This document shows, piece after piece, positions 4,910 to 64,000 of a stretch of DNA of 64,000 bases. The translations under genes were made by a program, and so were the position numbers. Source of the DNA: Patescibacteria group bacterium (GTDB taxonomy: Bacteria; Patescibacteriota; Microgenomatia; UBA12405); assembly GCA_023380755.1 (NCBI GenBank), contig JAMCSD010000002.1:22022-86021 (forward strand), in the 5' to 3' direction. The first letter of the stretch is position 1; each line of letters begins with the position of its first letter. The notes beneath the pieces were generated by a model. That model did not search any database and had not been told where the DNA came from. It worked only from the letters and a program-made list of their open reading frames with translations.

Positions 4910-4922
4910 ATTTGATTATTAT

Positions 4923-7436: not shown

Positions 7437-7559
7437 AGAAATTATACACGATAAATAGGCAATTATTGGATTTTGACTTATATTAGCAGTTATAAAGTAA
7501 TAGTGCTAACTATATAAATAAGTATATATATTATTCTATATGTAGCTATCTGTATCTTT

Positions 7560-7931: not shown

Positions 7932-7962
7932 AGCTTGTTAATTTGTAAAAGGGGCAGATGGG

Positions 7963-8036
7963 TGGTTGTTACAGGACTCGGACCTGTGACCTCATCGATG
8001 TGAACGATGCGCTCTAACCAACTGAGCTAAACAACC
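7963..8036 (-). tRNA. tRNA-Val (anticodon CAC), no encoded CCA
   Basis: Reverse complement is GGTTGTT-TA-GCTC-AGTTGGTTA-GAGC-G-CATCG-TTCACAT-CGATG-AGGTC-ACAGG-TCCGAGT-CCTGT-AACAACC-A. The T-loop again has C at position 55. Confidence 0.85.
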
Positions 8037-8083
8037 ATTTTGACCGATAGCAAATTATACCAAGACATATTAAACTTGAACGT

Positions 8084-8674
8084 ATGAAAGCAAGTTTGAA
8101 ATACCAGGAAGGTTTTGCTATAGGTTCATTGGTATTGGAGTTTGTCCAGTCGATAGTCTTAGCTTTATCGGTGTTTGTCCTTTTATACTTGTTTGTGGCT
8201 CAGCCAAATGAGGTCAAGGGAACGTCAATGGAGCCCAATTTTGAAAACGGTGAGTATCTTTTAACCGATAAATTGTCATACCAATTGGGAAAACCGCAAC
8301 GAGGCGATGTGGTGGTATTCAAGGCTCCCCCGTCGGAACCGTGTGCCGCTGATGAATGTGAATATATTAAAAGGATTATAGGTGTTCCGGGAGATAAGGT
8401 GATGGTTAAAGGCGGCCAGTACTTAAAGAATGGGCAGCAATTAAAAGAACCGTTTTTGCCAGCTGATTTTGTGACCGATCCGGGCAGTTTCGTAAAAGAA
8501 GGTGTTGAGGTGACAGTGCCGGGTGATTATTATCTTTGCTTTGGAGATAACCGGTCACACTCACGGGATGGCCGGGAGTTTGGAGTAATCAAGCGTGACA
8601 GTATCGTCGGGAAAGCTTTCTTTAAGTACTGGCCGCCAAGCTCGGTAGGTTTAGTACCGACGGTCAGATTTTAA
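8084..8674 (+). CDS. lepB: Signal peptidase I
   Basis: TM anchor followed by the catalytic Ser box GTSMEPNF, then RGDVVVFKAP, the Lys box YIKRIIGVPGD, and GDNRSHSRDGREFG. Confidence 0.9.
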   Translation: MKASLKYQEGFAIGSLVLEFVQSIVLALSVFVLLYLFVAQPNEVKGTSMEPNFENGEYLLTDKLSYQLGKPQRGDVVVFKAPPSEPCAADECEYIKRIIGVPGDKVMVKGGQYLKNGQQLKEPFLPADFVTDPGSFVKEGVEVTVPGDYYLCFGDNRSHSRDGREFGVIKRDSIVGKAFFKYWPPSSVGLVPTVRF

Positions 8675-9555
8675 GCGTTGGGTGTCAAATAAGATGTGTC
8701 GGAGTGGGTATCGTTGTCGGATTCGAGGGTTTTGTTACAAAGCTTTTGATAGAGGTTGCTGAGTTCGGTGAAGCGTTGGTCGATAGGCCCGTGAAATTGA
8801 AAAGTAACCCGAGTGACAACGTTGGTTTGGACAATTTTAACCTTAGTGGTTTTATCATCGAAAAATGATTCCAGGTCGCTGCCGATATTGTCCAGACGGG
8901 ATTTAAGGAATTGGGGTAAGTTTTCTTTGGTGATGGGGACAGTCCCCTCTTCAATCTTTTTGCGCATGCGGCGGGCAATATCTTCGGCGCGGCGGACAGA
9001 AGCCTTTTCCCGGAGAACGATTTTGTAGGCTTCGATCATCAGACGGGTGTCACTGATGCCGGAAAGGGCCCGAGCGTGACCTTCGGTGATGAGGCCGGTC
9101 AAAAGACCGTCCTTGAGGGCGTCGGGTAGGGTGAGGAGTTTGAGGACGTTGATGACATAAGGGATACTTTTACCCATGCGTTTAGCAATTTTGTTGTTAT
9201 CAAAGGTAAATTCTTCTTTTAGTCGTAAAAAGGCTTTGGCCCGTTCAATGGGGTTAAGGTCTTTGCGTTGGATATTTTCAACGATGGCCATTTCCAACAT
9301 TTGCTGGGGACTAGTTTCTTTGACGAGCGCAGGGACATATTCCAGTTTGAGAAGACGGGCTGCCCGCCATCGCCTTTCACCGGCAATTATTTGGTAGCCG
9401 GCCGGAGTCTTGGCGACAATAAGAGGTTCCAGAATTCCGTGTTCCCGGATGGAATCGACCAGTTCTGTCAAGGATTCGGGAGAAATAATCCCCCGGGGCT
9501 GAAGAGGGTTTGGCTCCAGCTGATTGGTAGGAATTTGAGAAACAGACTTCATCAT
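8671..9555 (-). CDS. parB: Chromosome partitioning protein ParB/Spo0J
   Basis: ParB N-terminal box LEPLIVAKTPAGYQIIAGERRWRAARLL. HTH region NNKIAKRMGKSIPYVINVLKLLTLP. Confidence 0.9.
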   Translation of the reverse strand: MMKSVSQIPTNQLEPNPLQPRGIISPESLTELVDSIREHGILEPLIVAKTPAGYQIIAGERRWRAARLLKLEYVPALVKETSPQQMLEMAIVENIQRKDLNPIERAKAFLRLKEEFTFDNNKIAKRMGKSIPYVINVLKLLTLPDALKDGLLTGLITEGHARALSGISDTRLMIEAYKIVLREKASVRRAEDIARRMRKKIEEGTVPITKENLPQFLKSRLDNIGSDLESFFDDKTTKVKIVQTNVVTRVTFQFHGPIDQRFTELSNLYQKLCNKTLESDNDTHSDTSYLTPNA

Positions 9556-18002: not shown

Positions 18003-19080
18003 CTACAGGAGTATACTTCATCTGCCTGTTGACTACCAAGCCGATGGCCGCAAAGAGGGTCAAAAGTGAGGAGCCGCCGTAAGAAATGAACGGCAAAGGG
18101 ACACCGGTCAAAGGAACGAGAACGGCAATAGCGGCAGTATTAATGATAGTTTGGTAACTGATCCATAATCCCACTCCCATAATGATTAACTGATCAAAAG
18201 GGTCAGTGGCTAACTTGGCCACCTTGAAGATTGAGGTAATCAAAAAATAGTAAAGAAGAAGGATTAAAAAGATGCCAAAAAAACCGAGCTCTTCTCCGAT
18301 GACCGCCAGGATAGAGTCGGTGGCCAGTTCTGGCAAATATTGGTATTTGTGATTGGAGTTGCCCAAGCCTTTGCCAAATAATCCGCCGGAAGATAGGCTA
18401 AGAACGATTTGATTGGTATGGTAGCCAGAACGGGAGGCGTCGTCATGAGGCGACAGCAGGGTTTGGAGCCGGGCATGGCGGTATGGGGAAAACAAGATTA
18501 AGACCAGGCCGACAGCAGCAAAGACGGAAGTTAAGGTTAGAAGTTGGGTAATATTACCGTTACCCAAATAATATAGGGAGAAGATGACGGCGGTGATGAG
18601 GACGACGCTGCTCATGTTCGGTTGAAGAATGATGAGAATTAAGGGTGGTAAAAGGGCGAGGAGAATATTTTTAAGACTATTCTTGGAGGGGTGGGAAATC
18701 AATTTAGCAAAATAAAATATGGCGGCGAGTTTGAAGATTTCCGTTGGTTGGATAGCGAAAAAACCTAATGATAGCCACCGCCTGGCACCTAAAATGGTTG
18801 TGCTAAATCCGGGAATGAGGACAATTACTAATAGTAGAGTGGATAATAAATAAAGTGGGGTGGTTATCTTTTTAAGGTAGGTAAATTTGAGTCGAGAGAC
18901 TACAAATAGAACCATGGAACCGACAAAAATCCAAAGCAACTGTTTTTTAATGAAAAAGTAATGATCACCAAAAGAAGCCTGGGCTTCAGCAAGAGTGGAT
19001 CCGGCTAAAAAGATGAGACTGACAGCCACCAGGGTATAGATGCTGATGATTATTTTAGAAATTCGGGAGATTAATCTCAT
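17881..19080 (-). CDS. ftsW: SEDS-family lipid II polymerase FtsW
   Basis: Motifs NSNHKYQYLPELATDSILAVIGEELGFFG and GVPLPFISYGGSSL. The C-terminal 40 codons overlap murG. Confidence 0.85.
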   Translation of the reverse strand: MRLISRISKIIISIYTLVAVSLIFLAGSTLAEAQASFGDHYFFIKKQLLWIFVGSMVLFVVSRLKFTYLKKITTPLYLLSTLLLVIVLIPGFSTTILGARRWLSLGFFAIQPTEIFKLAAIFYFAKLISHPSKNSLKNILLALLPPLILIILQPNMSSVVLITAVIFSLYYLGNGNITQLLTLTSVFAAVGLVLILFSPYRHARLQTLLSPHDDASRSGYHTNQIVLSLSSGGLFGKGLGNSNHKYQYLPELATDSILAVIGEELGFFGIFLILLLYYFLITSIFKVAKLATDPFDQLIIMGVGLWISYQTIINTAAIAVLVPLTGVPLPFISYGGSSLLTLFAAIGLVVNRQMKYTPVDDNQINPYHRQPSHPGHRIDPSAKKRFPNSLASKLHQRRF

Positions 19081-20113
19081 AAGGGTTAGTGGTAACAGGA
19101 TGGTCTAGGTGGATAGTTTTTACAGTGGTACCAAAATTATCTTTGGGGGTTATTTCGGTGCCAATAATACGATTATTATAGAAGCGGTCTTGAGGTGTGG
19201 GAATATCGAGATCGTGACTAAATTCATTAAGATGATAATAGAAAAGAGGGGTGACTCCGGCTTTTTGTTCCAGTTGGGAATAAAAAGCATAGGAAGCGGT
19301 CAGTCTGGGGTTACATTCTAGAAGATAAACTTGAGACTCGGGAGTGATGAAAAAATCAAGACCAAAGAAACCAAGGTAATTGAAATCCTTTTTGATGGAG
19401 TTACCAAATTGGGCAGTTAGGTCGAAAATTTTTTCTAAGATAGGGGTTGGGGCGCCTGAAGGCCATTGGCGGCCGACAGTGGTGAAGGGGTTAAGGGTGA
19501 GATTTTTAACTCCGGTCAACTGAAGAGCAGGAGGACTTTGAAGTAATTGCCCTTGGTATAAGCAACAGTTGTTAAGTAGGGTGTAACCGGATAGAAGCGG
19601 CATAATCTTAACAGGTATATTAGGAGTGAGTTGACTGGTTTTTCCGGAGCGGTAAGTTGATTGTCCCGCCCAGCCGAAATGAGTTTGGATAACGAGATCG
19701 GAGGTTTGAAATCGAGACTGGCATTCGGAAATGAGTTGGGGGGAAAATGGGCCAATATAGTAAGGAATTACCGGAAGGTGATTACTAGTGGCAAACTTAG
19801 CAAAGAGGATTTTATCTTCCAGAACTCGGTTGACTTTCGCCGCGTTGGCAACATAAAGCCATTGATGTTCTCGGCAGAGGTGTTCGATTTTGGCCGACGG
19901 CTTAAAGGGGATGATAGCTGCTGGAAAGTTGTTTCGGGTCTTTTCAATATAATCAATCACATCGGGGTGGCTGAGAAGGGCGCCGCTATTTTTGGGAATA
20001 TTAAGCTGGAATTCGGAAAGCTTAATCCGATGAAAGTTGGGGAAATCTGGGCCGGGATCAAAATCAAGGCTTTCATCAACTACCAATAAAAAATAATGGT
20101 AACGGCTCATCAT
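19055..20113 (-). CDS. ATP-grasp fold ligase, unknown specificity (not a recognisable Ddl)
   Basis: C-terminal ATP-grasp core LGFFGLDFFITPESQVYLLECNPRLTASY. It occupies the dcw slot usually held by murD/ddl, and its start overlaps the upstream PLP gene by 4 nt. Confidence 0.6.
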   Translation of the reverse strand: MMSRYHYFLLVVDESLDFDPGPDFPNFHRIKLSEFQLNIPKNSGALLSHPDVIDYIEKTRNNFPAAIIPFKPSAKIEHLCREHQWLYVANAAKVNRVLEDKILFAKFATSNHLPVIPYYIGPFSPQLISECQSRFQTSDLVIQTHFGWAGQSTYRSGKTSQLTPNIPVKIMPLLSGYTLLNNCCLYQGQLLQSPPALQLTGVKNLTLNPFTTVGRQWPSGAPTPILEKIFDLTAQFGNSIKKDFNYLGFFGLDFFITPESQVYLLECNPRLTASYAFYSQLEQKAGVTPLFYYHLNEFSHDLDIPTPQDRFYNNRIIGTEITPKDNFGTTVKTIHLDHPVTTNPYEINLPNF

Positions 20114-20913
20114 CGTTTGGCTCCGGTCAATAAAATAACAGGATAATTACCCACGTTTTGGTGAAGTTCCCGGGCTTTAAACAGTCCAGCTAAGCTTAAA
20201 GCCCCTTCATTAGAAGTGATGATATTATTGGCTTCCAAGATGGCTGAAGCATCAAGAATTTGTTGGTTTTGAAGGACGAAAGCGTTGGTGATGAGAGGAA
20301 GGAGGCGGGGCTTAAGAGGCAAATATTTTACGGAAAGGGCATCGGTAATCGAAGTGGACTCGGCTGTAAATTTTTTATCAAAATGGGAAGCAATGGGGCA
20401 ATAAAAGGCTGGCTGAACGGCAAACATGGGAATAGCGGGTGGTATGGCCTGGCGAATTCCGAGGAAAGTAGTGCCACTACCAACGGGGACGAAGAGGCTA
20501 GTCATTTGAGGAAGCTGCTCAAGCAGTTCCCGCCCGATCTCTTGATAGCCTAATAAGGCGGTGGGGTCGGTGGATTGGCGAAGAAAAAAGGCACCGTTGG
20601 CTTTAGAAAAAACAAAGGCGTCTTTGATGGGATTAAGTGAGGTTACCAGTTTGGTATGATTTAATAAGGCTTTCTTATGGGGGTTAATTTTAGGTGAGAC
20701 AAAGACGGTCAGATCGATATGGTTGAGAGAACAGTAATGAGCAGCGGAAATGGCGGCATTACCGGTGGAAGAAATTACCGCCCGGGTGATATGTTCATCG
20801 GCCAGTCTTTGGACCTGAACTGATAGGGCACGATCTTTGGCGGATCCAGTAGGGTTTTGATCTTCTCTTTTGATGTAAAAATCTCCAATTTTGCTAAGTA
20901 GAGTTTTGGCCAT
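20110..20913 (-). CDS. Fold-type II PLP-dependent enzyme (threonine synthase/cysteine synthase family), short form
   Basis: PLP-lysine motif KREDQNPTGSAKDRA and ISSTGNAAISAA. At 267 aa it is shorter than typical family members. Confidence 0.7.
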   Translation of the reverse strand: MAKTLLSKIGDFYIKREDQNPTGSAKDRALSVQVQRLADEHITRAVISSTGNAAISAAHYCSLNHIDLTVFVSPKINPHKKALLNHTKLVTSLNPIKDAFVFSKANGAFFLRQSTDPTALLGYQEIGRELLEQLPQMTSLFVPVGSGTTFLGIRQAIPPAIPMFAVQPAFYCPIASHFDKKFTAESTSITDALSVKYLPLKPRLLPLITNAFVLQNQQILDASAILEANNIITSNEGALSLAGLFKARELHQNVGNYPVILLTGAKR

Positions 20914-25367: not shown

Positions 25368-25967
25368 TTAGTTATTTTTAGTATATTTAACCCAATCACC
25401 GTTATCAAAGACTTCAAATCCTGGCATGTTTCGTTTGTAGAATCCGGTGTCGGGGGAAAATTGGCCCAAGTAACAATAATCTAATCCCTGGTGGTAACTG
25501 TCGACGATAACTTGAAGAACCATGCGAATAGGAAGATTGAGCCGCTGATACGAGGGATCATAAAACACATAGGCAATATGGGACATGGCCGGTGTGACCA
25601 GACAAATGGCATAGCCGATGATTAAATCATTTTGCTGCCAAATGTAAAGTTCATTGAAGATGTGGTTGTTAAAAACTGTTTTAACTGAAGAAGTAGGAAA
25701 ATCCCATTTTAAAAGTGACAGCCAATGGTGAATTGTTTTTAAATTCTCGGCCGTTAAAGTAAAAGAATTGAGGGGTGTTCGTTCGTAATGGAATTGGTCG
25801 GTTTTTTTAAGAATGCGCCGATTTTCCGAAGAGAGAGAGTATTCATGTAAGTTAGAGCGACAGCTAGTAGACTGGTAAAAAAGTCCCTTTTGGTTCCGTT
25901 GGGGCAGAAGGCCTTGTTGGTAGATGTGGGGCAAAGAATCAGTAGGGGTGAGATTAAATGCCGGCAT
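25368..25967 (-). CDS. ATE/Bpt-family aminoacyl-tRNA-protein transferase homolog (ATE_C-like core only)
   Basis: SSENRRILKK, MSHIAYVFYDPSYQRLNLP, and GLDYCYLGQFSPDTGFYKRNMPGFEVF resemble the ATE_C consensus (S.vY.FYDP ... YLGY ... YK..F.P.E). There is no Cys-rich N-terminal domain. Confidence 0.5.
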   Translation of the reverse strand: MPAFNLTPTDSLPHIYQQGLLPQRNQKGLFYQSTSCRSNLHEYSLSSENRRILKKTDQFHYERTPLNSFTLTAENLKTIHHWLSLLKWDFPTSSVKTVFNNHIFNELYIWQQNDLIIGYAICLVTPAMSHIAYVFYDPSYQRLNLPIRMVLQVIVDSYHQGLDYCYLGQFSPDTGFYKRNMPGFEVFDNGDWVKYTKNN

Positions 25968-49238: not shown

Positions 49239-50165
49239 ATGCTGAAAATGGTAAAGACAGTCTTTGGATCTCGGGTTTTCCGCTTGTTGTTTTCAGCAGT
49301 CTTATTTTATTTCGCTTTTCGTAAGGTGAATATTGTCCGATTGTTGAGCGAGCTACGAATGGTACCCGGATGGTTCCTGTTAATAATAGTTCTCTACTTT
49401 ACGGTTAGCATGACAGTGGGAGCGGTCAGGTGGATGCTACTGGTTCTGGAAAATCCAAAAGTAAAGGATATCCGTAATTTCTTAAATGCATCGTATTCCG
49501 GTGCTTTTTACAGTTTATTTTTTCCGTCGGCGGTAGGAGGAGATTTAGTTAAATGGCTGCCTCTTTTAGAAAAATATCCTCATCTTTCAAAAACAAAGCT
49601 AGCTAGTTCGGTATTAATCGATCGGGTGGTGGGATTATCGGCTTTTGCTTTAATGGCTTTTATCTCCGTATCTGTTGGAAAATTACTCAAATTCCCCTTT
49701 CCGGATTATCTTTTTTGGTTGTTTTTATTTTTGTTTGTCGGGGTAATTGTTTTTTATCTTTTTGTCTTTACGGTTGATTTTGAAAAACTGTTCGGGAAAA
49801 TTAAGTTCTTAAGAAGAATTTTAGATATTTTAGATATCTTAAAAGCGGGTAATAAGAAACGGATTTTTACATGCTTGTTAATTTCGATAGTGGCCGAACC
49901 AGTGTGGATTTTACCCATCTGGTTTTATAGTTTAATTTTTAATGCCGGGATGAGTTTAATGTCGGTATTTATTTTTATACCGGTGATCAACCTAATCATT
50001 GTGCTACCGATATCTTTTGCCGGTTTTGGCGCCCGAGAGAATTTATTCGTCTTGTTTTTTTCGCAATTAGGACTGTCGGAGGAGAAGATATTATTGGTAT
50101 CAACTTTTACGGGGATTATTGGTATTTTGAACGCTTTGTTGGGAGGACTGATTAGTTTAATATGA
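49239..50165 (+). CDS. Flippase-like / LPG-synthase-TM (UPF0104) family membrane protein
   Basis: About 8 TM helices. The RWMLLV motif follows TM2, as in the UPF0104/MprF-TM family. Confidence 0.55.
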   Translation: MLKMVKTVFGSRVFRLLFSAVLFYFAFRKVNIVRLLSELRMVPGWFLLIIVLYFTVSMTVGAVRWMLLVLENPKVKDIRNFLNASYSGAFYSLFFPSAVGGDLVKWLPLLEKYPHLSKTKLASSVLIDRVVGLSAFALMAFISVSVGKLLKFPFPDYLFWLFLFLFVGVIVFYLFVFTVDFEKLFGKIKFLRRILDILDILKAGNKKRIFTCLLISIVAEPVWILPIWFYSLIFNAGMSLMSVFIFIPVINLIIVLPISFAGFGARENLFVLFFSQLGLSEEKILLVSTFTGIIGILNALLGGLISLI

Positions 50166-54078: not shown

Positions 54079-54810
54079 ATGAAGGGAATTGTTTTGGCCG
54101 GTGGTAAGGCTACCAGGTTACGTCCTTTGACCAAGATTACCTCGAAGCAACTGCTTCCGGTTTATAACAAACCGATGATTTATTATCCCCTTGAGACCTT
54201 AATCAAAGCGGGGATCAAAGATATTTTAATAATCATTGCCCCGGATTATTCGGGACACTTTTTAAATTTATTGGGATCGGGACGTGAATTTGGAGCAAAA
54301 TTTTCTTATGAAATTCAGGAGGAGCCGAGGGGATTGGCTGATGCTTTTATAATTGGGGAGAATTTTATCGGGAGTGATAATGTGACGTTGATTTTAGGCG
54401 ACAACATATTTGATATGGATTTTAGCCAAGCAATCGGCGGCTTTAAGAAAGGAGGGTTAGTGTTTGCCAAGAAAGTGGCTGACCCAGAGCGTTACGGAGT
54501 GGTCGAGTTTGATAAAAGTAGGAATGTTGTCTCGATTGAAGAAAAACCGTCGAAGCCAAAAAGTAATTATGCGGTTCCCGGGTTGTATGTTTACGATAAC
54601 CGGGTAATCGATATTGCCAAAAAATTAAAGCCATCACCGAGGGGCGAAATCGAAATAACCGATGTCAACAACGCCTATCTGAAAATGGGTGAGTTGAGAG
54701 TGGAAGTAATTGACGGCATCTGGGAAGATGCCGGAACTTTTGAAAGTTTGTTACGCGCGAGTAATTTAATGGCCGAAAAAGAAGGAAAAAAAATGGGATC
54801 AAAATTATGA
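54079..54810 (+). CDS. rmlA: Glucose-1-phosphate thymidylyl/nucleotidyl-transferase (short RmlA-like form)
   Basis: Motifs [30 protein letters not shown] and ERYGVVEF. Confidence 0.8.
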
Positions 54811-55487
54811 TTGTGGTCATTGCTGGGATGCATCGCAGCGGCTCAACGTTTGTATTTAATGCGGTCAGGGAGTTGTTAGAAAAAAGAGGCAAGACCATTT
54901 GGATTTCAAGTGATAAATATGAGGACGTTATGGCCTTGTCGAAAGGCTACAAGAATATTATTATTAAGAGCCACTTGCCGGATGAGGGGATTACTCGTCT
55001 AGTAGAAGAGAAAAAGGCAGTATGTATCGGAACAATCAGAGAACCACAAGAGGCAATTAGATCTTTGATGAGAGTTTTTGGTTTTTCTTTCGAGATTTCA
55101 AATAAGCACATTTTTAACTGGTTAGGCTGGTATCAACAAAACCGGAAATTTGTATCGATCATAAAATATCAATTGGTCAATCATGCGCCTTTGATAGCCG
55201 TAATTCTTGTGGGTTGGTATATATTTGCAGGATTATTAATCTATGAAAGCATCAAAATTACAAAGAAATATAACAAAAATAGACTTCGGCAAAAACTAAA
55301 GGAGTTAAAGCCAGATGATGCTAATGTGGTCGATGCGGGTTTTAGTTATTATGATAAGGAAACTTTTTTTCATCGAAATCATATCTCTGAAGAGGGAGAG
55401 GAGGTGGGGCCGGTTTTGAGTGAAGAACAGCAAAGATTTATTCAGGAGGAAGCGAGGAAATATGGATTTTTGAAAATGTTAAATTGA
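54807..55487 (+). CDS. Sulfotransferase-like P-loop protein with an internal hydrophobic segment
   Basis: 5'-PSB-like motif [15 protein letters not shown], then KSH, then a 3'-PB-like [12 protein letters not shown] hydrophobic stretch [18 protein letters not shown] lies mid-protein. The gene is low in GC. Confidence 0.45.
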
Positions 55488-56753
55488 TCGGCTGACAACA
55501 AAAACGTAGTTCGTAGTAGCTGAGCCGCCAATGTTAAGCATAAGACCGTGATCGGAATTCGCCACTTGGTAATTTCCCGCTTGGTGGGTAACTTGACGGT
55601 GAAGGTCTAGCAGCATCCGGACACCGGTGGCGCCGACGGGATGACCGACACCAATCAGACCGCCGCTGGGATTAATAGGATTTTTACCGCTAATGGTGAT
55701 AGAACCGTTTTCGATGACTTCATATTCCTTGCCAGGTGGAGTTAGGCCAAAGGCAGAGATAGCGGCATACTCACTAGAGGTGAAACAATCATGGGTTTCA
55801 TAAAAATCAATTTGTTTTTCCGAGAGTTTGGCTCGGGAAAGCGCATCCAGGACTGCCTGTCTGGTCCAGGGTAAAACAAAAAGATTAGAGGAAGATTCGG
55901 AGATTTTTTCGGAAAAAAGCACCGGAGCGACCCGATGACCCCAACCACTAATAGTAGATAGCGTATTAGCTTTGGAGAGATGCCGATGTTGAAGATATTT
56001 TGAAGAGTATTTAGGTGAGGCAAGAATAATACAAGCAGCCCCGTCAGTAACTTGAGAACAATCAGTCACGCTTAATTTACCGCCGACGGAAATGTTATAG
56101 TTTCCCTGGCGATGGCAGGCGTGGTTTTTATTCATAAACCAGCTGCGGGTTTGGGCTAAAGGATTAAGTTTGGCATTATGGTAGTTGATTGATGATATTT
56201 CCGCTAAGTTACTAAGAAACCTATTTTCATCGAGTTGATAACGGGATAAATAGACATCAGCTAGTTGGCCAAAAAGTTTGGGAAAGGGAAAAGAAATGTT
56301 TTTTGCCTCTTTTTCATAATAAGCAGCCGTTCCTAAAAAGTCACCGCCAACAGCCGAACTGACGGTTTTCATAACTTCGATGCCTAAAACAATGGCTAAG
56401 TCATAATCCCCGACTCTTATTTTGGTGGCGGCGGCGTCAATGGCGACCGAACCTGAAGCGCAAGCTGCTTCAAACCTACTTCCGGGAACACCAAAAAAGG
56501 ATGGGTGGATTTCTGTAAAGAAGGCGCCCAAGTGTCCTTGGTTAAAATACTGTTCCCCATCAAAGTTACCCAAAAAAATGCCGATTTTGTTTTTCTTATT
56601 AAGACGAATAATTTCTTGAAAATCTATTCCAGTATCGGAAAGGGCGTCAGAAATTACTTCCCGCATCATGGCAATAAATGTTTTGCCTTCTTTGGACCAG
56701 TTACGTTGAAAATCAGTCTGAGCGCCACCGATAATATGTACTATTGATGTCAT
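55479..56753 (-). CDS. Thiolase-fold enzyme (acetyl-CoA C-acetyltransferase-like)
   Basis: Active-site Cys [12 protein letters not shown], then [10 protein letters not shown], and [20 protein letters not shown]. Confidence 0.8.
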
Positions 56754-58043
56754 TTATATGGCTCTAATAAAATTACGATAATCTAATTGATTTTGAAGTT
56801 TATAAAAGTGGTCGATAGAGGAAGAAAGAGTTTGGGGAACTGGTAATTTGAATCGGTGAATGAGTTTTACCGTTGGCTGGTAACCGCCCAAAAGATCGAT
56901 TAAAGCTGATGGTGGCAGCCAATTAAAACCATAGCCCATGACCAAGTCAATATCGTGAAGTTGATTAACAACGGTACCAACTAAGGATAAAGAGTAACTG
57001 ATATAACGAGCGATAAAATAAGCCATAATTTCTGATTCTTGGGTGTTGCCGGTTAGTATGTCGTTAAAGGCTTCTTGGTACTGAGCGACGGAGATCTTGG
57101 CTTTGATCTTGGTAAGTAAGGGAAAGTTTAGAACCGGTATGGGCTCATAACGGAGTTTGACGGTATTGAAGACATATTTCTGGCCATTTTCGTTTTTATA
57201 AAGACCCTGGCCAGATTTATTGCCAAGATATCCCCGGGAGATAAGAAAGGTAAGAAACGCGGGCATTTTAAATGTCTCATGAGCTTCGTCAGAGGTGTGA
57301 AGATACAAATTATCAACAATTGCTTGATGAACATCGAGTCCAACCAAATCAGAAGTGGCCATGGGAGGTAAGGTGTGGCCGGTCACTCCGCCCAGAAGTT
57401 CGTCGATATAGGTAATTCCGCCGAGATCTTGGTAGCGGTTGGCAAATTGGGCGGCTTCATTAAGGATTTGAAATCCGATCCGATTTCCGGCGAAACCGGG
57501 GCTATCTTTGGTAATTACCACCTGGCGGTGAAGTTGGTTTGAGAGATAACTAATTAGTTCCGCCTGGGTAGAAGGGTCAGATTTGTTGGTAGGGATAAAT
57601 TCACAAAGTAATAACCGGTAAGGAGGATTATAAAAATGAGTCCCAAAATAAAATTTAGATTCACTTTCGGTAAAACACTTGGATAACTCGTTTATGGAGA
57701 GACCTGAAGAAACGGTGGAGACAATTGAACCTGATTTTTTATATTTAGCAATTAGGGAGGTAATCTCCTTTTTGAGTTCTAAGTTTTCGGCAGTTAACTC
57801 AAAAATCCAATCACTTTGAGGAATGCAGCTAGCTAAGTCGGCGTAGGTTTGCGGAATGAACTGATGAGCAATGGTATCAGTCTTGATGGAATCTTGCGCA
57901 ATATGTATCCCCTCTTGGGCTTTTTCTAAAGTCCTGGCAACCATAAAAATTTTAGCTTCACCAAACCCGGCGATAATTCCGGCGCAATGAGAACCCATGG
58001 TGCCATTAGCGCCTAGAATGGTAACGGTTTTGATGGATTTCAT
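56754..58043 (-). CDS. 3-hydroxyacyl-CoA dehydrogenase family protein
   Basis: Rossmann motif VTILGANGTMGSHCAG and the family motif SPGFAGNRIGFQILNEA. Its stop abuts the thiolase start. Confidence 0.75.
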   Translation of the reverse strand: MKSIKTVTILGANGTMGSHCAGIIAGFGEAKIFMVARTLEKAQEGIHIAQDSIKTDTIAHQFIPQTYADLASCIPQSDWIFELTAENLELKKEITSLIAKYKKSGSIVSTVSSGLSINELSKCFTESESKFYFGTHFYNPPYRLLLCEFIPTNKSDPSTQAELISYLSNQLHRQVVITKDSPGFAGNRIGFQILNEAAQFANRYQDLGGITYIDELLGGVTGHTLPPMATSDLVGLDVHQAIVDNLYLHTSDEAHETFKMPAFLTFLISRGYLGNKSGQGLYKNENGQKYVFNTVKLRYEPIPVLNFPLLTKIKAKISVAQYQEAFNDILTGNTQESEIMAYFIARYISYSLSLVGTVVNQLHDIDLVMGYGFNWLPPSALIDLLGGYQPTVKLIHRFKLPVPQTLSSSIDHFYKLQNQLDYRNFIRAI

Positions 58044-58080: not shown

Positions 58081-58893
58081 TTAAGAAAAATGGTAGAAAC
58101 GTTCGAAAGAAGTGAAGGAGCGGCCGACTAATAATTTTTTTAGCTTAGGGAAGGTTTTTTTTAAATTAAGTTCGTGGATAAAAGTTTCCATTGGTTTTAA
58201 GGGAATCCTGGGGTGTGTCGGGTCAAGTTCCCAGGGGTGAATATAGAAAATAACCGGATGGTTTTGGCGGTTTACAGTCTGTGTTAACAATTTAATTATT
58301 GGAAGTGGTAAGAGGCGGAAATAAAAACCGCCGGAGAACGGAAATCGCTGATGGTGAATTTCTAAAGTAGAAGGAGGTGTTTCGGTAATCGAGCCTATGG
58401 AGGTAGAAAAGCGAGGAGCCTGGTTGTCCCCATAAAGATAAGTTTTGTACGGGAAGACGCTGGAGGAGTACTTTAAATGGTATTTGGCCAAGATGTCCCA
58501 GAACCAGGGTGTTTCAGAACGACAAACGGACCAGGCAGGTGCACGATAACCTAAAACCTTTTTTTGGGTGATATCTTCTAATAAAGTGACAGTTTTTTTG
58601 AGATCACTTTCGAACTGTTGGGGTGACATAAGATTGATAAACTGATGATGGAACCCGTGACAACCGATTTCATGGCCTAGTGAAGCAATTTTTTTAATTA
58701 ATTGGGGGTGTCTTTTGGCTACTTCACCAACCACAAAGAAGGTGCCGTAATTTTTGGTTTTACCTAAATGATCTAAAAGTTTCTCGGTGGGAGCGATGAC
58801 ACGATAATCATTGGTCTTGAAGGGCTGGCCAGCTGGTGATGAATGATACCAATCTTCTAAATCGACAGAGAAAATGTTTAATAATTTTTCCAT
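58081..58893 (-). CDS. Polysaccharide deacetylase (DUF3473-containing, EPS-locus type)
   Basis: N-terminal FSVDLEDWYH, then GTFFVVGEV, HEIGCHGFHH and YRAPAWS. Confidence 0.8.
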   Translation of the reverse strand: MEKLLNIFSVDLEDWYHSSPAGQPFKTNDYRVIAPTEKLLDHLGKTKNYGTFFVVGEVAKRHPQLIKKIASLGHEIGCHGFHHQFINLMSPQQFESDLKKTVTLLEDITQKKVLGYRAPAWSVCRSETPWFWDILAKYHLKYSSSVFPYKTYLYGDNQAPRFSTSIGSITETPPSTLEIHHQRFPFSGGFYFRLLPLPIIKLLTQTVNRQNHPVIFYIHPWELDPTHPRIPLKPMETFIHELNLKKTFPKLKKLLVGRSFTSFERFYHFS

Positions 58894-58945: not shown

Positions 58946-60028
58946 ATGGATATCATAACAAAAAACGAACGAGGTTGGCGGGTTAGCGATTATCAAAAAA
59001 AGTATAAAAAGAGTATTTTAGATTTGTTTAAAAAAGAGTATCCGGAGTCAAAACTATGGGACGGTGATTTTTTTGAGTGGCAACACTTTCATAATCCAGC
59101 AGGTAAATCAGTGATTAAATTAGCGATAAATGCCAACGATGAGGTGGTGGGTTTTTATTGTGTTTCACCACAAGATTATTCGGTCAAGGGTAAGATTGTC
59201 CATGGGTCGATATCTTTAAGCACGTTGGTGAGAGATGACTTTAGAGGGATGGGGATATTTACGATTTTAGCTCAAGAATGTTTTAAAGAATGCCAAAAAT
59301 TAGGAATAAAATTTACTTTGGGTTTTCCGAACCAGAACTCATACCCGGGTTTTATGAAAAAGTTGGGATTTACAGATTTGGGTGAAATGCCTTTGTTAAT
59401 CAGACCTTATAATTTAAACCATTTGATTACAGAAAAGTTTAACTCTAAGTTATTGGGCGTTTTCATGAATCCTATCGATTGGTTTTTAAAAACTTTTCGC
59501 TATTCAGGAAATGATCTGGTTGAAGGTGAAGACATTGGAAGGCAGCAAGATGATATTTGGCGAAAGGCGAAGGTACGCGAGAAAATTTTGGCTGTTAGAG
59601 ATAGGAATTTCTTAGGCTGGCGAACGAAATGGCCTGGTAGAAATTACAAATGCTTATATCTTCGGGAAAATAACCTGGTTAGAGGTTATATTATTTTGAC
59701 AACTTTCTTAACTGGAAAAATAAGAAATGGATTGATCGCTGATTTTTTTATTGAGGATTCGAAAGAGATTGACAAGATAGCCGTTAGATTGTTAAAACAA
59801 GCAGATTCTTTTTGGAAAGAGAATAAGGTTGACCAGGCAGGTTGCTTATTAAGCCAAGATTCAACAGAATATAAAATACTTAAGAGACATGGTTACTTTA
59901 ATTGTCCGGATTTTATTAAACCGCAACCAATGAGAGTAATTGTGAAGTGGCATGAAGGGAATGTTCCATCAGAATTAAGTGATTTAGGAAAATGGTATAT
60001 TACGCTTATAGATTATGATGTGGTATAA
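58946..60028 (+). CDS. Two-domain GNAT-fold acyltransferase
   Basis: GNAT core VVGFYCVSP...VRDDFRGMGIFTILAQECFKECQKLGIKFTLGFPNQNSYPGFMKKLGF, followed by a second domain of about 150 aa. Confidence 0.6.
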   Translation: MDIITKNERGWRVSDYQKKYKKSILDLFKKEYPESKLWDGDFFEWQHFHNPAGKSVIKLAINANDEVVGFYCVSPQDYSVKGKIVHGSISLSTLVRDDFRGMGIFTILAQECFKECQKLGIKFTLGFPNQNSYPGFMKKLGFTDLGEMPLLIRPYNLNHLITEKFNSKLLGVFMNPIDWFLKTFRYSGNDLVEGEDIGRQQDDIWRKAKVREKILAVRDRNFLGWRTKWPGRNYKCLYLRENNLVRGYIILTTFLTGKIRNGLIADFFIEDSKEIDKIAVRLLKQADSFWKENKVDQAGCLLSQDSTEYKILKRHGYFNCPDFIKPQPMRVIVKWHEGNVPSELSDLGKWYITLIDYDVV

Positions 60029-60034
60029 GACTTT

Positions 60035-61510
60035 ATGAAAATAATGCTTGTGAGCCCTCCCTTTTATCGTATTTTGGGTTTATATAACCGCTACTATCCT
60101 TTTGCCCTAGTTCTGTTAGGGACTATACTTAAAAAGGAAGGTTATCAGGTAGCGGTATATGATGCCGATTTTTACCTTAAACCAGAGACAATTAATTATG
60201 CCCAAATTCTGGAACGAGAAACTGTTTTTGTGGAGTCACTAAATGACAAGAACAATAAAATTTGGGACGAAGTAATAAAAAATATTAAGAAATATAAACC
60301 AGATGTTTTGGGGATATCGGTTTATACAACTTTTGCTGGATCGTCTTTTCATCTAGCTAAGTTAGTAAAGAAAGCTTTACCGAAATGCAAAATTGTGATG
60401 GGCGGACCACATGCAACCGTAAAAGCTGACGAAATTTTAAAAATATGTAGGGATGTGGATTACGTGATTCGAGGTGAAGCGGAAGAATCTTTTAAAGGCT
60501 TAATAGCGCATCTTCGCGACAAAAAGAAAGGAGAGATTAAAGTTTTGGGCGTATCTTACCGGAAGGGAAAGAAAATAATTCATAATGGTAATAGTGTGGC
60601 GCCAACAGATTTGGATAAATATCCGTCACCGGATCGAAGTATTCTTTTAAACGAGAAACAACTGTCTTCTGAAGATATGGGTTTGGTGATGACCAGTCGA
60701 GGATGTCCATTTAGATGTACCTACTGTGCTTCGACAAAAGGAATTCGTTACCGATCAGTTGATAATGTAATTAAGGAAATTACAGAAGTAAAAAGGAAAT
60801 ATGGCACTGTTCAGTTTACATTAAAAGATGATTCATTTACGGTGGATAAAAAGCGGGTGAAGGAATTTTGCCAGAAATTAATAGATTTAAAAATCAATAT
60901 TAAATGGGAGTGTAATACAAGAGTAAATTTAATTGATGAAGAGATGCTGAGGATTATGAAAAAAGCTGGTTTAAATTTTATAAAAGTGGGGGTAGAGTCC
61001 GGATCACAAAAGATGATTGAGAGAATGAATAAAGGGATAACGCTGGATCAGATCAGAAAAGCGGCGCAATTATTTAGGAAGTTAGGTATTCATTGGACCG
61101 GCTATTTTATGATGGGTGTCGTCGGAGAAACCGAAGAAGATATTTACGAGACAGTAAAGTTTTTAAATGAGGTTAAGCCGAATTTGGGAGTAATCGCCGT
61201 ATATGAGGCTTTTCCGGGAACAGTCATGTTTGAGGAGGGGAAAAAATTAGGATTATACCGAGATGATATGAGTCTGAAGGACTTTTACACCATGACTCCC
61301 GAAACTTATTATAAGAAGGATCCGAAGATACAAAATGATCGCATCAAACCGGAAAGATTTGACGAGATTGAAGCAGAAGTAAATCAAGCTTTTTATAAAA
61401 ATAACCGTAATTTGATTAATGTTTATGCTATGGGAAGATCGAAGATGGGTGTTTACCTTCGGGACCCAAAAATCTTGATCGAGGATGCGAAAAAATTACT
61501 GAGTTATTAG
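60035..61510 (+). CDS. B12-binding-domain radical SAM enzyme (class B)
   Basis: N-terminal cobalamin-binding-like domain (PDVLGISVYTT...IVMGGPHAT). Radical SAM cluster motif SRGCPFRCTYC. Confidence 0.8.
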   Translation: MKIMLVSPPFYRILGLYNRYYPFALVLLGTILKKEGYQVAVYDADFYLKPETINYAQILERETVFVESLNDKNNKIWDEVIKNIKKYKPDVLGISVYTTFAGSSFHLAKLVKKALPKCKIVMGGPHATVKADEILKICRDVDYVIRGEAEESFKGLIAHLRDKKKGEIKVLGVSYRKGKKIIHNGNSVAPTDLDKYPSPDRSILLNEKQLSSEDMGLVMTSRGCPFRCTYCASTKGIRYRSVDNVIKEITEVKRKYGTVQFTLKDDSFTVDKKRVKEFCQKLIDLKINIKWECNTRVNLIDEEMLRIMKKAGLNFIKVGVESGSQKMIERMNKGITLDQIRKAAQLFRKLGIHWTGYFMMGVVGETEEDIYETVKFLNEVKPNLGVIAVYEAFPGTVMFEEGKKLGLYRDDMSLKDFYTMTPETYYKKDPKIQNDRIKPERFDEIEAEVNQAFYKNNRNLINVYAMGRSKMGVYLRDPKILIEDAKKLLSY

Positions 61511-61511
61511 T

Positions 61512-62240
61512 ATGAAAGAAAAGGTCTTAATCTCGATCCCGGCTTATAATGAAGAACTGAATATTGGCTCGACCATAAAAAAATTAAAAAGTTTTTCACA
61601 CGGAAAAAATTGGGATATTTTGGTAGTTGATGACGGTTCAAAAGATCAAACATCAATCGAGGCAAGAAAATACGGCGTAATTGTAGTCAGGCACCCCTTT
61701 AATATGGGGTATGGTGTAGCTATTCAAACTGGATACAAATATGCGTTGGAAAATGGCTATGATATTTTGGCCCAGATTGACGCTGATGGGCAGCATGATC
61801 CAAAGTATATCGAAGAAATGATAAAGGACTTGAAAGAAAAGCGGTTGGATGTGGTCATTGGTTCTCGGTTCAGAAAAAATACTGATTATCACGCACCATT
61901 AGCTCGAAGGATTGGGATGATAGTGTTTAGTTTTATTGTCAGTTTAGTAACCAGACGTAAGGTTACCGATTCGACTTCAGGTTATCAAGTGATTAGCCGG
62001 CGAGTATTAAGTTTTTTATGTTCTGATTCGTTCCCCTGCGATTATCCGGATGCAGATTTGCTGATAATGTTGCATTTTGCTGGATTTAAGGTAGATGAAA
62101 TTCCGATGAAGATGTATGAAAACAAGACCGGAAAATCAATGCATGGAAGTTTGATAAAGAACTTCTATTATGTTGCCAAAATGACGCTGTCAATTTTTAC
62201 AATTGTTTTACGTAGAATTACCAGTTTACCAAGCTTCTAA
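61512..62240 (+). CDS. Glycosyltransferase family 2, polyprenyl-phosphate sugar synthase-like (DPM1/PpgS type)
   Basis: Motifs LISIPAYNEELNI, VVDDGSKDQT, QIDADGQHDP and a C-terminal membrane segment. Confidence 0.75.
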   Translation: MKEKVLISIPAYNEELNIGSTIKKLKSFSHGKNWDILVVDDGSKDQTSIEARKYGVIVVRHPFNMGYGVAIQTGYKYALENGYDILAQIDADGQHDPKYIEEMIKDLKEKRLDVVIGSRFRKNTDYHAPLARRIGMIVFSFIVSLVTRRKVTDSTSGYQVISRRVLSFLCSDSFPCDYPDADLLIMLHFAGFKVDEIPMKMYENKTGKSMHGSLIKNFYYVAKMTLSIFTIVLRRITSLPSF

Positions 62241-62241
62241 A

Positions 62242-62598
62242 ATGCCTCGAGTCCAGCAGTTATTTTTTTATATAGTCGCGATTTTTTTGTTGGTACTGAT
62301 CCTAAATTTAGTTCGAAAAAGAAAGCTTAGAGAAAATTATAGTTTATTGTGGATATTTATTTCCTTTGTACTGATGCTGATTGTCCTGATGTATCCATTG
62401 TTAGTTAAGTTTTCAAATTATTTTCTGGCTAACCCGACATCGATGATTATGTTTTGTGGTATGATGGCTTTATTGTTATTGATATTACAACTATGTTTAA
62501 TGAATTCGGTACAGGCGACACAGATAAAGAACTTAGTGCAAAAGATAACGCTTTTGGAGGAAAAAATTGTTCATCTAAAGGATACGTCAAGTAAATAA
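62242..62598 (+). CDS. Small 3-4 TM membrane protein, DUF2304-like partner of the GT2
   Basis: MPRVQQLFFYIVAIFLLVLILNLVRKRKLRENYSLLWIF. Start at ATG 62242, just after the GT2 stop. It ends in a C-terminal coiled segment. Confidence 0.55.
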   Translation: MPRVQQLFFYIVAIFLLVLILNLVRKRKLRENYSLLWIFISFVLMLIVLMYPLLVKFSNYFLANPTSMIMFCGMMALLLLILQLCLMNSVQATQIKNLVQKITLLEEKIVHLKDTSSK

Positions 62599-62630
62599 AT
62601 TAAAATAAAATTATTATTTATCCAAAGGAA

Positions 62631-64000
62631 ATGAAAAAAGGAAATAATCGAATATATTTACTATATCCTCCAATATCAAAACAGGAGAGATATTCATCAG
62701 ATTTGGGTAGTGCTGGAGGTGAACAAATACCTTTAGGAATTTACTGCTTAGCAGCTTATCTACGGGAACAGGGATATGAGATTAAGGTGACAGACGGGGA
62801 AACCGAAAAATTAACGGGAAATCAGATTATTAAAGAAATAAAAAGGTTTGATCCTTTTGTGGTCGGAATAAGTTCGACTACGGTGGCATTCCATCGGGCT
62901 TTGGAAATGGCTAAATTAGTGAAGAAAAAGTTCCCGAAAGCAAAGATTATTTTGGGTGGACCACACGTTACTTCAAATTACAAAGATGCCTTATCTTTTA
63001 AGGAGTTTGATTACGAGGTTTTACGGGAAGGGGAAATTACGACCGTCGAACTTCTAAAGGCAATTCAAGAGGGAAAGCCGGTTGAGAATATAAAAGGTAT
63101 TGCCTATAGGAAAAACGGCCAAGTTGTGGCCACTCCACCTAGGGAATATATCAAAAACCTGGATGAATTACCTTTTCCGGCCTACGATTTAATCAAAGAC
63201 ATTAGTTTATATACCCCTGATTTGTCGAATTACATGTCAACACCGGTGATTAATATTATGACTAGTCGTGGTTGCCCGAATCAGTGCACTTTTTGTGACC
63301 GGGCAGTATTTGGACAGTTATACCGAGAAATGTCTGCCGAACGGGTAGTAGAACTAATAAAGTATCTGGTAAAAACATATAAAGTCAGAGAAATTGATTT
63401 TACGGATGATACCTTTATGATAAATAAAGTACGATTTAGAAAAATATTCCAACTTCTTAAGGAAGAAGGTATTAGTTTTTATTGGACCTGTACTAGCCGG
63501 GTTAACACAGTTGATTTTGAGACTCTAAAGTTAGCAAAAGAGACAGGCTGCTGGCATATCGCATTTGGGGTTGAATCCGGAGACGAAGATATTCTTAAAT
63601 TGATAAAAAAGAATATAACTATGGAGCAGATAAGAAAGGCGATGAATTGGTGTAAACAGTTGGGGATTAAAAGCAAAGGATATTTTATTGTTGGTCACCC
63701 CGGTGATACGGTCGAGACAATCAATAAGACCATAGATTTGGCTTGCAGTCTGCCGTTAGATGATATCTTGGTTACGATAAATACGCCGATTCCCGGATCT
63801 CCACAATACTTTTTTATTAAGGAATATGGAGATTTTGATGAATCGGACTGGTCTAAATTTAATTGCTGGAGACCGGTTTTTATTCCCAAGGGACTATCTA
63901 AAGAATTATTGCTAAAGAAACAACGAGAGATGTACCGGAAATTTTATGTTAGGCCGAGAATTGTTTGGCGTTATTCAAAAGGTATATTTGGACGAGGAGG
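62631..64000 (+). CDS. Second B12-binding-domain radical SAM enzyme (3' partial, absent from the ORF track)
   Basis: I translated 456 codons from ATG 62631 (AAGGAA upstream) to the window edge without a stop. Motifs are FVVGISSTT...IILGGPHVT and SRGCPNQCTFC. Paralogous to 60035-61510. Confidence 0.8.
   Translation, partial: MKKGNNRIYLLYPPISKQERYSSDLGSAGGEQIPLGIYCLAAYLREQGYEIKVTDGETEKLTGNQIIKEIKRFDPFVVGISSTTVAFHRALEMAKLVKKKFPKAKIILGGPHVTSNYKDALSFKEFDYEVLREGEITTVELLKAIQEGKPVENIKGIAYRKNGQVVATPPREYIKNLDELPFPAYDLIKDISLYTPDLSNYMSTPVINIMTSRGCPNQCTFCDRAVFGQLYREMSAERVVELIKYLVKTYKVREIDFTDDTFMINKVRFRKIFQLLKEEGISFYWTCTSRVNTVDFETLKLAKETGCWHIAFGVESGDEDILKLIKKNITMEQIRKAMNWCKQLGIKSKGYFIVGHPGDTVETINKTIDLACSLPLDDILVTINTPIPGSPQYFFIKEYGDFDESDWSKFNCWRPVFIPKGLSKELLLKKQREMYRKFYVRPRIVWRYSKGIFGRG

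Follow-up and report, generated by a model that had tools for sequence, protein, structure and literature searches.

Bacteria generally decorate surface polymers outside the cytoplasm with sugars carried on polyprenyl phosphate (polyprenyl-P), as in the Gtr, Gac, Arn and PpgS routes. To our knowledge, all tailoring of sugars at this lipid-carrier stage is polar chemistry, for example deformylation. Here we analyze a 64,000-nucleotide stretch (the window) from a Patescibacteria group bacterium (assembly GCA_023380755.1, contig JAMCSD010000002.1, positions 22,022 to 86,021), which ends in a cassette where a family 2 glycosyltransferase (GT2) and a small DUF2304 membrane protein lie between two radical S-adenosylmethionine (SAM) enzymes with B12-binding domains, rSAM1 and rSAM2. 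The original prediction, made from the DNA alone, proposed radical C-methylation or rearrangement of a lipid-linked sugar or of the polyprenyl carrier.

Parts of such a system have been described separately. GacJ and Rv3632, two small membrane proteins of the DUF2304 family, bind to the GacI (undecaprenyl-phosphate GlcNAc, Und-P-GlcNAc) and PpgS (polyprenyl-P-GalNAc) synthases and stimulate them (bioRxiv 10.1101/180810). In the HpnI-HpnK-HpnJ system, which makes bacteriohopanetetrol cyclitol ether, and in that of calditol synthase (Cds), a hexose or GlcNAc is put on a lipid and a deacetylase acts, with a radical SAM enzyme to remodel the sugar on the lipid; in HpnJ this enzyme has a B12-binding domain (PMC13459092). 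Some known class-B radical SAM enzymes C-methylate or dehydrate sugars at unactivated carbons (PMC12931638). Our searches of the literature found no description of a class-B radical SAM enzyme coupled to a polyprenyl-phosphate sugar synthase, and the coupling is missing from recent reviews of B12-dependent (PMC12931638) and lipid-modifying (PMC13459092) radical SAM enzymes, which agrees with the original claim that the combination is not a described pathway.

The synthase pair and its radical SAM neighbors

The cassette begins with a GNAT-family N-acyltransferase gene, followed by rSAM1, GT2, DUF2304 and rSAM2. The intergenic gaps are 6, 1, 1 and 32 nt, and the five plus-strand open reading frames (ORFs) therefore form an operon. 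All five proteins score above the Pfam gathering score for their assigned domains. The predicted gene order, strand and tight spacing held, with measured gaps of 1-32 nt, and the motifs CPFRCTYC, DADGQHDP and CPNQCTFC were all found, as were GISxxTT and GGPH in both radical SAM proteins. A scan for promoters and terminators at 58-64 kb gave no more sites than shuffled sequence.

The GT2 gene (61512-62240, plus strand) encodes 242 aa with a Glycos_transf_2 domain (PF00535, 101.8 bits). The enzyme is of the soluble type found in PpgS, GacI and DPMS, having no membrane domain of its own. Its nearest solved sequences are PfDPMS (an archaeal dolichol-P-mannose synthase), ArnC and GtrB, all polyprenyl-phosphate glycosyltransferases, and its DADGQHDP motif aligns with DADLQHPP of PfDPMS, giving the DAD...Q..P pattern of polyprenyl-phosphate GT2s. 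The best NCBIfam match is PpgS (NF058614) with 117.9 bits, under the cut-off of 370; by its score the enzyme is PpgS-like and no PpgS ortholog. The DUF2304 gene (62242-62598, plus strand) begins 1 nt past the GT2 stop and encodes 118 aa counted from the ATG (PF10066, 68.5 bits versus a cut-off of 25.5), with about three transmembrane helices and a C-terminal helix by hydropathy, as in the GacJ/Rv3632 family. Homology identifies the two as a predicted polyprenyl-phosphate sugar synthase of the GacI/GacJ or PpgS/Rv3632 type. The first reading of the GT2 as such a synthase with a small membrane partner is borne out by Pfam, by the PpgS match and by the DPMS, ArnC and GtrB relatives; for such pairs this function is already known biology. 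The accessions of rSAM1 and rSAM2 are two apart (MCL4383939.1 and MCL4383941.1), yet both the GT2 and DUF2304 ORFs lie between them (61512-62598), so the deposited record may lack an annotation for the small DUF2304 gene.

rSAM1 (60035-61510, plus strand; P0001) has 491 aa with B12-binding and Radical_SAM domains at 68.7 and 98.2 bits. For rSAM2 (62631-64000, plus strand; P0121), which runs to the window end, 456 of 480 aa are visible and the two domains score 83.6 and 110 bits (Pfam cut-offs: B12-binding, PF02310, 32.1; Radical_SAM, PF04055, 29.5). The CxxxCxxC cysteines are C224, C228 and C231 in rSAM1 (CPFRCTYC) and C215, C219 and C222 in rSAM2 (CPNQCTFC). On every testable count both belong to the class-B (B12-binding-domain) radical SAM superfamily. 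They share 30% identity, about what either has with any other B12-type radical SAM enzyme, and fall into separate ortholog groups; the predicted paralogy thus stands at the superfamily level and not as a close relationship.

Neither protein reaches the cut-off of any curated NCBIfam family, HpnJ, BchE and the AprD4 diol dehydratase included, so the clustering with known unrelated families that the original prediction had set as one part of its refutation did not appear. The top scores are BchE (191 bits) and HpnJ (190 bits) for rSAM1, and HpnJ (262 bits, over nearly the full profile) and BchE (209 bits) for rSAM2, compared with cut-offs of 577.6 for HpnJ (TIGR03471) and 481 for BchE (TIGR02026). 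The AprD4 model (NF033070, cut-off 500) gives only 87.5 and 77.8 bits; both proteins have CX3CX2C, and AprD4 aligns with CPYPCRFYC, so the CX3CX3C pattern of AprD4 is absent. Weaker NCBIfam matches include the lipid modifiers HpnP and HpnR and the ladderane-associated TIGR04072. Between rSAM2 and annotated HpnJ the identity is 32%, and neither the window nor the related loci contain hpn or shc genes, unlike the genuine hpn locus L157. On sequence grounds, the source labels 'anaerobic Mg-protoporphyrin IX monomethyl ester cyclase' (BchE) and 'YgiQ' carried by members of these families are over-annotations.

The nearest sequences in the Protein Data Bank (PDB) are MgmA/QCMT (9CCB), AprD4, TokK, CysS and OxsB. 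AlphaFold2 models (predicted local distance difference test, pLDDT, 93.6 for rSAM1 and 87.4 for rSAM2) have the same structural neighbors, namely MgmA, AprD4, TsrM, OxsB and TokK. In Foldseek both models match class-B structures with E values of 1e-19 to 1e-24 and TM-scores of 0.6-0.7, with no single preferred neighbor. A hydropathy scan found no hydrophobic segment in either enzyme, and both are therefore presumed to be cytoplasmic.

AprD4, a close structural neighbor, has the same N-terminal domain and is not known to contain cobalamin. The original prediction had suggested a search for cobalamin genes, and no transport or salvage genes lie within the 64-kb window, which is the scope of this check. 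No ligand motif is diagnostic of cobalamin binding in class-B enzymes, which hold the cofactor base-off (PMC12931638).

Conservation of the coupling across phyla

Both radical SAM families are widespread and conserved. The rSAM1 ortholog group (~493 aa, 46-67% identical, 62% mean column identity) is found in Patescibacteria, Omnitrophota, Bacteroidales, Sedimentisphaerales, Phycisphaerales and Solirubrobacterales. The rSAM2 group is very strongly conserved (53-85% identical, 65% mean column identity) and extends over Patescibacteria, Bacteroidales, Nitrospirae, Desulfitobacteriaceae, Aminicenantes, Planctomycetota, Victivallales and a Nanoarchaeota metagenome-assembled genome (MAG). A plasmid collection held no ortholog of either, only HpnJ, BchE and other paralogs at most 33% identical. 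A pair of radical SAM genes on a Clostridium estertheticum plasmid proved unrelated, as it belongs to a cluster of the type making ribosomally synthesized and post-translationally modified peptides (RiPPs), which also encodes PqqD, an ABC transporter and a protease of family S8.

To collect rSAM2 loci, the family-specific peptide GISSTTVAFHRA was turned into a DNA pattern and run against a metagenome collection. This yielded 60 loci, every one with an rSAM2 ortholog (47-84% identical). Where at least 1.5 kb was present on both sides, a GT2 lay within 1.5 kb in 10 of 12 rSAM2 loci versus 9 of 55 loci of generic B12-radical-SAM paralogs (Fisher p ~2e-5, indicative only, the counted loci not being phylogenetically independent). 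The control loci came from a genome-contig scan with the rSAM1 alignment that keyed on the generic RGCPxxCxxC and returned almost only paralogs of 27-35% identity; DUF2304 occurred in 0 of 79 of them.

The GT2 beside rSAM2 comes in three architectures: a GT2 of ~245 aa with a DUF2304 protein of ~124 aa, a GT2-GtrA_DPMS_TM fusion of 343-408 aa, and a GtrB-length GT2 of 325-341 aa. Apparent GT2-radical SAM fusions (549-891 aa; L115, L148, L136 and others) were rejected as stop-to-stop ORF extensions in high-GC contigs. In 17 rSAM2 loci there is a ~700-aa protein, polytopic at its N terminus and with tetratricopeptide repeats (TPR) at its C terminus, which we infer to be a TMTC/PMT-like transferase. 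In a Desulfitobacteriaceae locus (L091) the content is DUF2304, GT2, rSAM2, EamA fragments, GNAT and a split deacetylase.

rSAM1 shows the same association. Its ortholog lies 0-1 genes from a GT2 in nine contexts from Patescibacteria, Omnitrophota, Bacteroidales, Sedimentisphaerales, Solirubrobacterales and unclassified bacteria. L084 (rSAM1 67% identical to that of the window) has a methyltransferase, rSAM1, GT2, DUF2304 and a protein of 13 transmembrane helices (13-TM protein). Two Shapirobacteria loci (L085, L086) have GNAT, rSAM1, GT2 and DUF2304. A second, soluble GT2 of ~262 aa (GT2b, 38-47% identical among L001, L004, L087 and L155) appears in Omnitrophota (L087: rSAM1, GT2b, GT2, DUF2304), in Bacteroidales (L001: GT2a, rSAM1, GT2b, a third radical SAM type), in an unclassified bacterium (L004: rSAM1, the methyltransferase MT196, GT2b, a radical SAM gene) and in L155, where the order is a radical SAM/methyltransferase fusion, radical SAM, GT2, DUF2304, rSAM1, MT196, GT2b and a 677-aa protein. 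Sedimentisphaerales (L153) and Solirubrobacterales (L154) have rSAM1 followed by a short-chain dehydrogenase/reductase (SDR) and a GT2. GT2 orthologs 58-79% identical to that of the window adjoin DUF2304 in L084, L085, L087 and L089.

Taken together, it is well supported that the coupling of the radical SAM enzymes to a polyprenyl-phosphate sugar synthase is conserved far beyond chance and across phyla. The proposed link to lipid-linked sugar synthesis survives in the form of a conserved functional coupling, in which each radical SAM family is separately associated with a GT2. Conservation of the five-gene block, which had been put forward as a check, is partial: each family is paired with a GT2 across phyla, and the complete block was seen only in the window and its close relative L089.

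This relative is a Shapirobacteria contig (L089, L090, L132), 63-85% identical to and fully syntenic with the window. L089 reads thiolase, 3-hydroxyacyl-CoA dehydrogenase and deacetylase on the minus strand, then GNAT, rSAM1, GT2, DUF2304, rSAM2, a 634-aa protein and a class I methyltransferase on the plus strand; past the methyltransferase lie GT1 genes and Wzt/Wzm on the minus strand. The 634-aa protein (unk634, L089 11459-14163) has about 13 transmembrane helices, a C-terminal soluble domain and no Pfam match. Its 63% identical ortholog P0241 (M1116_00645) is encoded on the window's own 122,194-bp contig, from which records identical to rSAM1 and to full-length rSAM2 also derive, and because of this and the L089 synteny its gene almost certainly lies just past the window end. 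The extension beyond rSAM2 called for in the original prediction thus leads, by way of L089, to a 13-TM protein and then a methyltransferase. The 13-TM family (629-634 aa) follows the cassette in L084, L085 and L089. A word-indexed homology search of a 5.8-billion-cluster collection returned only five relatives, the named ones from Patescibacteria/Shapirobacteria. We regard this protein as a candidate novel GT-C-like transferase. In other phyla the rSAM2 loci contain the TPR membrane proteins in its stead.

Several of the related loci show further features. In L155 a 772-aa protein (3080-5398) that fuses a class I SAM methyltransferase domain to a B12-type radical SAM enzyme is encoded between wzt and the radical SAM/GT2/DUF2304/rSAM1 array, so that this polysaccharide locus has three class-B enzymes. 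Downstream of rSAM1, the SDR and GT2 of the L153 (9573-11643) and L154 (6234-8182) MAGs share 81-82% identity, reflecting either a module that has recently spread by horizontal transfer or a mistake in binning. A slot beside recQ is occupied in different Bacteroidales by GT2a, rSAM1, GT2b and the third radical SAM type (L001 6490-13720) or by GT2, DUF2304, rSAM2 and a TPR membrane protein (L113 3-6549), and the two cassettes look interchangeable at this one locus. The second radical SAM gene of L001 was ruled out as an rSAM2 ortholog (31% identity), the L001 cassette being analogous only.

A candidate pathway and its alternatives

We read the cassette as a lipid-linked sugar decoration module with radical SAM tailoring, at a probability of about 0.5. 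In this pathway, GT2 and DUF2304 would transfer an N-acetylhexosamine (HexNAc)-type sugar from a nucleotide sugar to polyprenyl (undecaprenyl) phosphate at the cytoplasmic face, as GacI/GacJ and PpgS/Rv3632 do. rSAM1 and rSAM2 would each modify that sugar, either on the polyprenyl-P-sugar, comparable to ArnD acting on undecaprenyl-phosphate 4-deoxy-4-formamido-arabinose (Und-P-Ara4FN), or just before transfer. The finished lipid-linked sugar would be flipped and then moved by the downstream 13-TM protein onto a surface polymer that the neighboring 20-kb polysaccharide cluster makes, in keeping with the way GacI/J/L add GlcNAc side chains.

That the two enzymes tailor the sugar of this route is probable, and the conserved linkage, the operon structure and the lack of hydrophobic segments point to tailoring on the cytoplasmic side. 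Methylation of unactivated sugar carbons would be the most likely chemistry, as it is the commonest class-B reaction and leaves the glycosyl-phosphate donor intact for transfer; methylation specifically is nevertheless a leaning that we hold at somewhat less than even odds.

In this lineage the sugar may be further altered by an exchange of its N-acyl group. Divergent from the operon, on the minus strand, lie a DUF3473-type polysaccharide deacetylase (58081-58893; Pfam Polysacc_deac_1 and DUF3473; TIGR03006 233.8 bits versus a cut-off of 276.2; weak ArnD-like match), a 3-hydroxyacyl-CoA dehydrogenase (56754-58043; Pfam 3HCDH_N and 3HCDH) and a thiolase (acetyl-CoA acetyltransferase, 55479-56753; NF004936, 583 bits, over the cut-off of 375). 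Fatty-acid-type genes are unusual for a Patescibacterium. The deacetylase is syntenic in L089 and L085, with the split copy in L091; the dehydrogenase (61% identity) and thiolase (72% identity) are syntenic in L089, and L085 and L086 have a thiolase as well. The GNAT gene (58946-60028, plus strand) encodes 360 aa (Pfam Acetyltransf_1/9) with a C-terminal extension of ~200 aa, and its orthologs lie directly upstream of rSAM1 in L085, L086 and L089 and beside rSAM2 in L091 and L106. We infer that the thiolase and dehydrogenase form a private supply of 3-hydroxyacyl-CoA, perhaps 3-hydroxybutyryl-CoA, for re-acylating a de-N-acetylated amino sugar. Based on these four genes, the deacetylase and GNAT would swap the N-acetyl group, fed by the thiolase and dehydrogenase, for a 3-hydroxyacyl and probably a 3-hydroxybutyryl group.

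A number of points weigh against the decoration module or its parts. Both radical SAM families are biochemically uncharacterized, and their best-scoring curated families, HpnJ and BchE, are non-methylating. A cysteine in a W-x-C-(N/T)-(T/S)-R strand, invariant in both families (rSAM1 C293, ~60911-60913; rSAM2 C287, ~63489-63491), is common to HpnJ and AprD4 and missing from BchE, as it is from TokK, CysS and MgmA, which are solved methylases; from the small sample of a handful of sequences, it may mark non-methylating, sugar-acting class-B enzymes. The counted loci lack phylogenetic independence, and in one case, the Nitrospirae locus L092, no GT2 occurs within 10 kb of rSAM2. Most rSAM2 loci have neither the deacetylase nor the GNAT. 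For the presumed transferase, Pfam, NCBIfam and PDB sequences gave no homology to the 13-TM protein, with a profile search included, and none to known GT-C enzymes. No flippase was identified in the cassette; the only candidates are the LPG_synthase_TM protein of the polysaccharide cluster, the EamA fragments of L091 and the GtrA_DPMS_TM domains fused to GT2 in other rSAM2 loci.

Several of these points favor the main rival, in which one or both enzymes rearrange a lipid-linked (amino)hexose in the manner of HpnJ/Cds, by ring contraction to a cyclitol, by epimerization or by AprD4-like dehydration or deoxygenation. We keep it because HpnJ and BchE are non-methylating, because the strand cysteine is common to HpnJ and AprD4, and because the L157 locus (4548-9193, Mycetohabitans endofungorum megaplasmid), a genuine hpnI-hpnJ-hpnK operon followed by LPG_synthase_TM, has a parallel logic: the window too has an adjoining deacetylase and an LPG_synthase_TM gene, and LPG_synthase_TM may be a flippase-like partner common to systems that remodel lipid-linked sugars. 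HpnJ is the top curated match of rSAM2, the sugar-acting AprD4 is among the top structural neighbors, and the SDR that follows rSAM1 in L153 and L154 recalls a dehydratase and reductase pair. Nonetheless, the scores are less than half the HpnJ cut-off, the identity to real HpnJ is no better than to other paralogs, the deacetylase is not an obligate neighbor of rSAM2, and the cysteine argument draws on few sequences. The conserved polytopic transferase-like partners beside the cassette also speak against it, since a carbocyclic product could not serve as a glycosyl donor. We consider rearrangement a serious though less likely alternative, at odds of between one in five and one in four.

Rather less probable is that the enzymes act upstream on a soluble nucleotide sugar and that the dedicated GT2 loads an unusual nucleoside diphosphate (NDP)-sugar, the linkage then reflecting substrate supply. 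Nothing anchors the two proteins to the membrane, rSAM1 adjoins a nucleotide-sugar-type SDR in L153 and L154, and L001, L004, L087 and L155 include soluble GT2b and small methyltransferases as partners. However, in many rSAM2 loci GT2 (with or without DUF2304) and rSAM2 are joined by a membrane transferase alone, nucleotide-sugar enzymes being otherwise missing, and the sugar-modifying class-B enzymes GenK, GenD1 and Fms7 act on glycosides and are not known to act on NDP-sugars. This alternative departs from the decoration module in the order of steps only. A non-sugar target (the polyprenyl carrier, some other lipid of the membrane, a protein or a peptide), with the GT2 adjacent through a shared envelope function only, is improbable: class B does include the lipid modifiers matched weakly here, the rSAM2 of L092 stands alone amid lipid A, BamA and fatty-acid genes and the L001 cassette lies near PagL and OmpH, but the gene right beside the enzymes consistently encodes a polyprenyl-P sugar synthase, in all three architectures, and neither rSAM1 nor rSAM2 is accompanied by genes for a precursor peptide, PqqD or a protease, unlike the ~30% identical paralogs of the C. 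estertheticum RiPP cluster.

Returning to the decoration module, rSAM1 and rSAM2 could be the founding members of two widespread radical SAM families that act directly on polyprenyl-phosphate-linked sugars, which would be the first radical (C-H functionalizing) tailoring at the lipid-carrier stage; we propose this tentatively, at a little short of an even chance. If true, C-methylated, deoxygenated or carbocyclic surface sugars would be expected in many uncultivated anaerobes, among them Patescibacteria, Omnitrophota, Bacteroidales, Nitrospirota and DPANN archaea. Symbionts with reduced genomes would rely on scavenged cobamide to make their envelope glycans, and envelope synthesis in Patescibacteria would include a cobamide- and Fe-S-dependent step that bears on their host or community dependence. 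It would also provide the first functional context for two large, highly conserved families of 'B12-binding radical SAM protein' that are mislabeled BchE or YgiQ.

Genomic setting and comparison with known systems

The cassette follows a surface polysaccharide cluster of ~20 kb at 34.7-54.8 kb of the window. This contains Bac_transf, ManC, several GT4 and GT2, Wzy_C-like and PMT-like membrane proteins, Gmd, RmlA/B/D-like enzymes and the LPG_synthase_TM protein (49239-50165). A weak sulfotransferase-like ORF (54807-55487) adjoins the cassette, and the matching clusters of relatives contain genes for sulfotransferase, 3'-phosphoadenosine-5'-phosphosulfate (PAPS) reductase and adenosine-5'-phosphosulfate (APS) kinase (L084 14454-17172; L155 13116-15361); the glycan being decorated may be sulfated. 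Further upstream, at ~14-30 kb, lies a division/cell wall (dcw) cluster. Here an ATP-grasp (ATPgrasp_ST-like) and pyridoxal phosphate (PLP)-enzyme pair is inserted between mraY and ftsW (19055-20913), and a 199-aa ATE_C/FemAB-like ORF lies between two Mur ligases (25368-25967). The extra genes at both sites suggest a non-canonical peptidoglycan stem or cross-bridge.

Compared with characterized class-B enzymes, namely GenK, GenD1, Fms7, TokK, CysS, MgmA/QCMT, TsrM, OxsB and AprD4, rSAM1 and rSAM2 have the same two-domain architecture and fold, at 15-22% identity in structural alignment. The known enzymes act on soluble antibiotics, peptides and proteins, and none is linked to a polyprenyl-P sugar synthase. 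With HpnI-HpnK-HpnJ, which acts on bacteriohopanetetrol-GlcNAc, the cassette shares the logic of glycosyltransferase, deacetylase and radical SAM enzyme. The lipid differs, being a polyprenyl phosphate carrier in the cassette and a hopanoid or glycerol dialkyl glycerol tetraether (GDGT) in Hpn/Cds, and so does the deacetylase: HpnK is of the YdjC type, while the window encodes a DUF3473 polysaccharide deacetylase.

The ArnC/ArnD/ArnE-F/ArnT pathway offers a second parallel, as a GT2 loads a modified sugar on undecaprenyl phosphate and an enzyme of the polysaccharide deacetylase family edits its N-acyl group before flipping. In the window the GT2 matches ArnC structures and the deacetylase weakly matches ArnD. 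The Arn pathway works without radical chemistry, and its sugar, acceptor and type of organism differ from those of the cassette; we know of no Patescibacteria that make lipid A.

The closest likeness in the synthase itself is to GacI/GacJ of Streptococcus pyogenes and PpgS/Rv3632 of Mycobacterium tuberculosis, where a short GT2 likewise stands beside a DUF2304 membrane protein of ~115 aa. The likeness extends to the setting in a surface polysaccharide cluster, to the ABC exporter seen in L089 and to a downstream polytopic protein as presumed transferase, although the cassette's 13-TM protein has no detectable similarity to the GT-C transferases GacL and Rv3779 or to any Pfam GT-C family. The Gac and PpgS systems have no radical SAM enzyme, unlike the cassette, whose conserved class-B partnership would bring C-H functionalization to the lipid-carrier stage.

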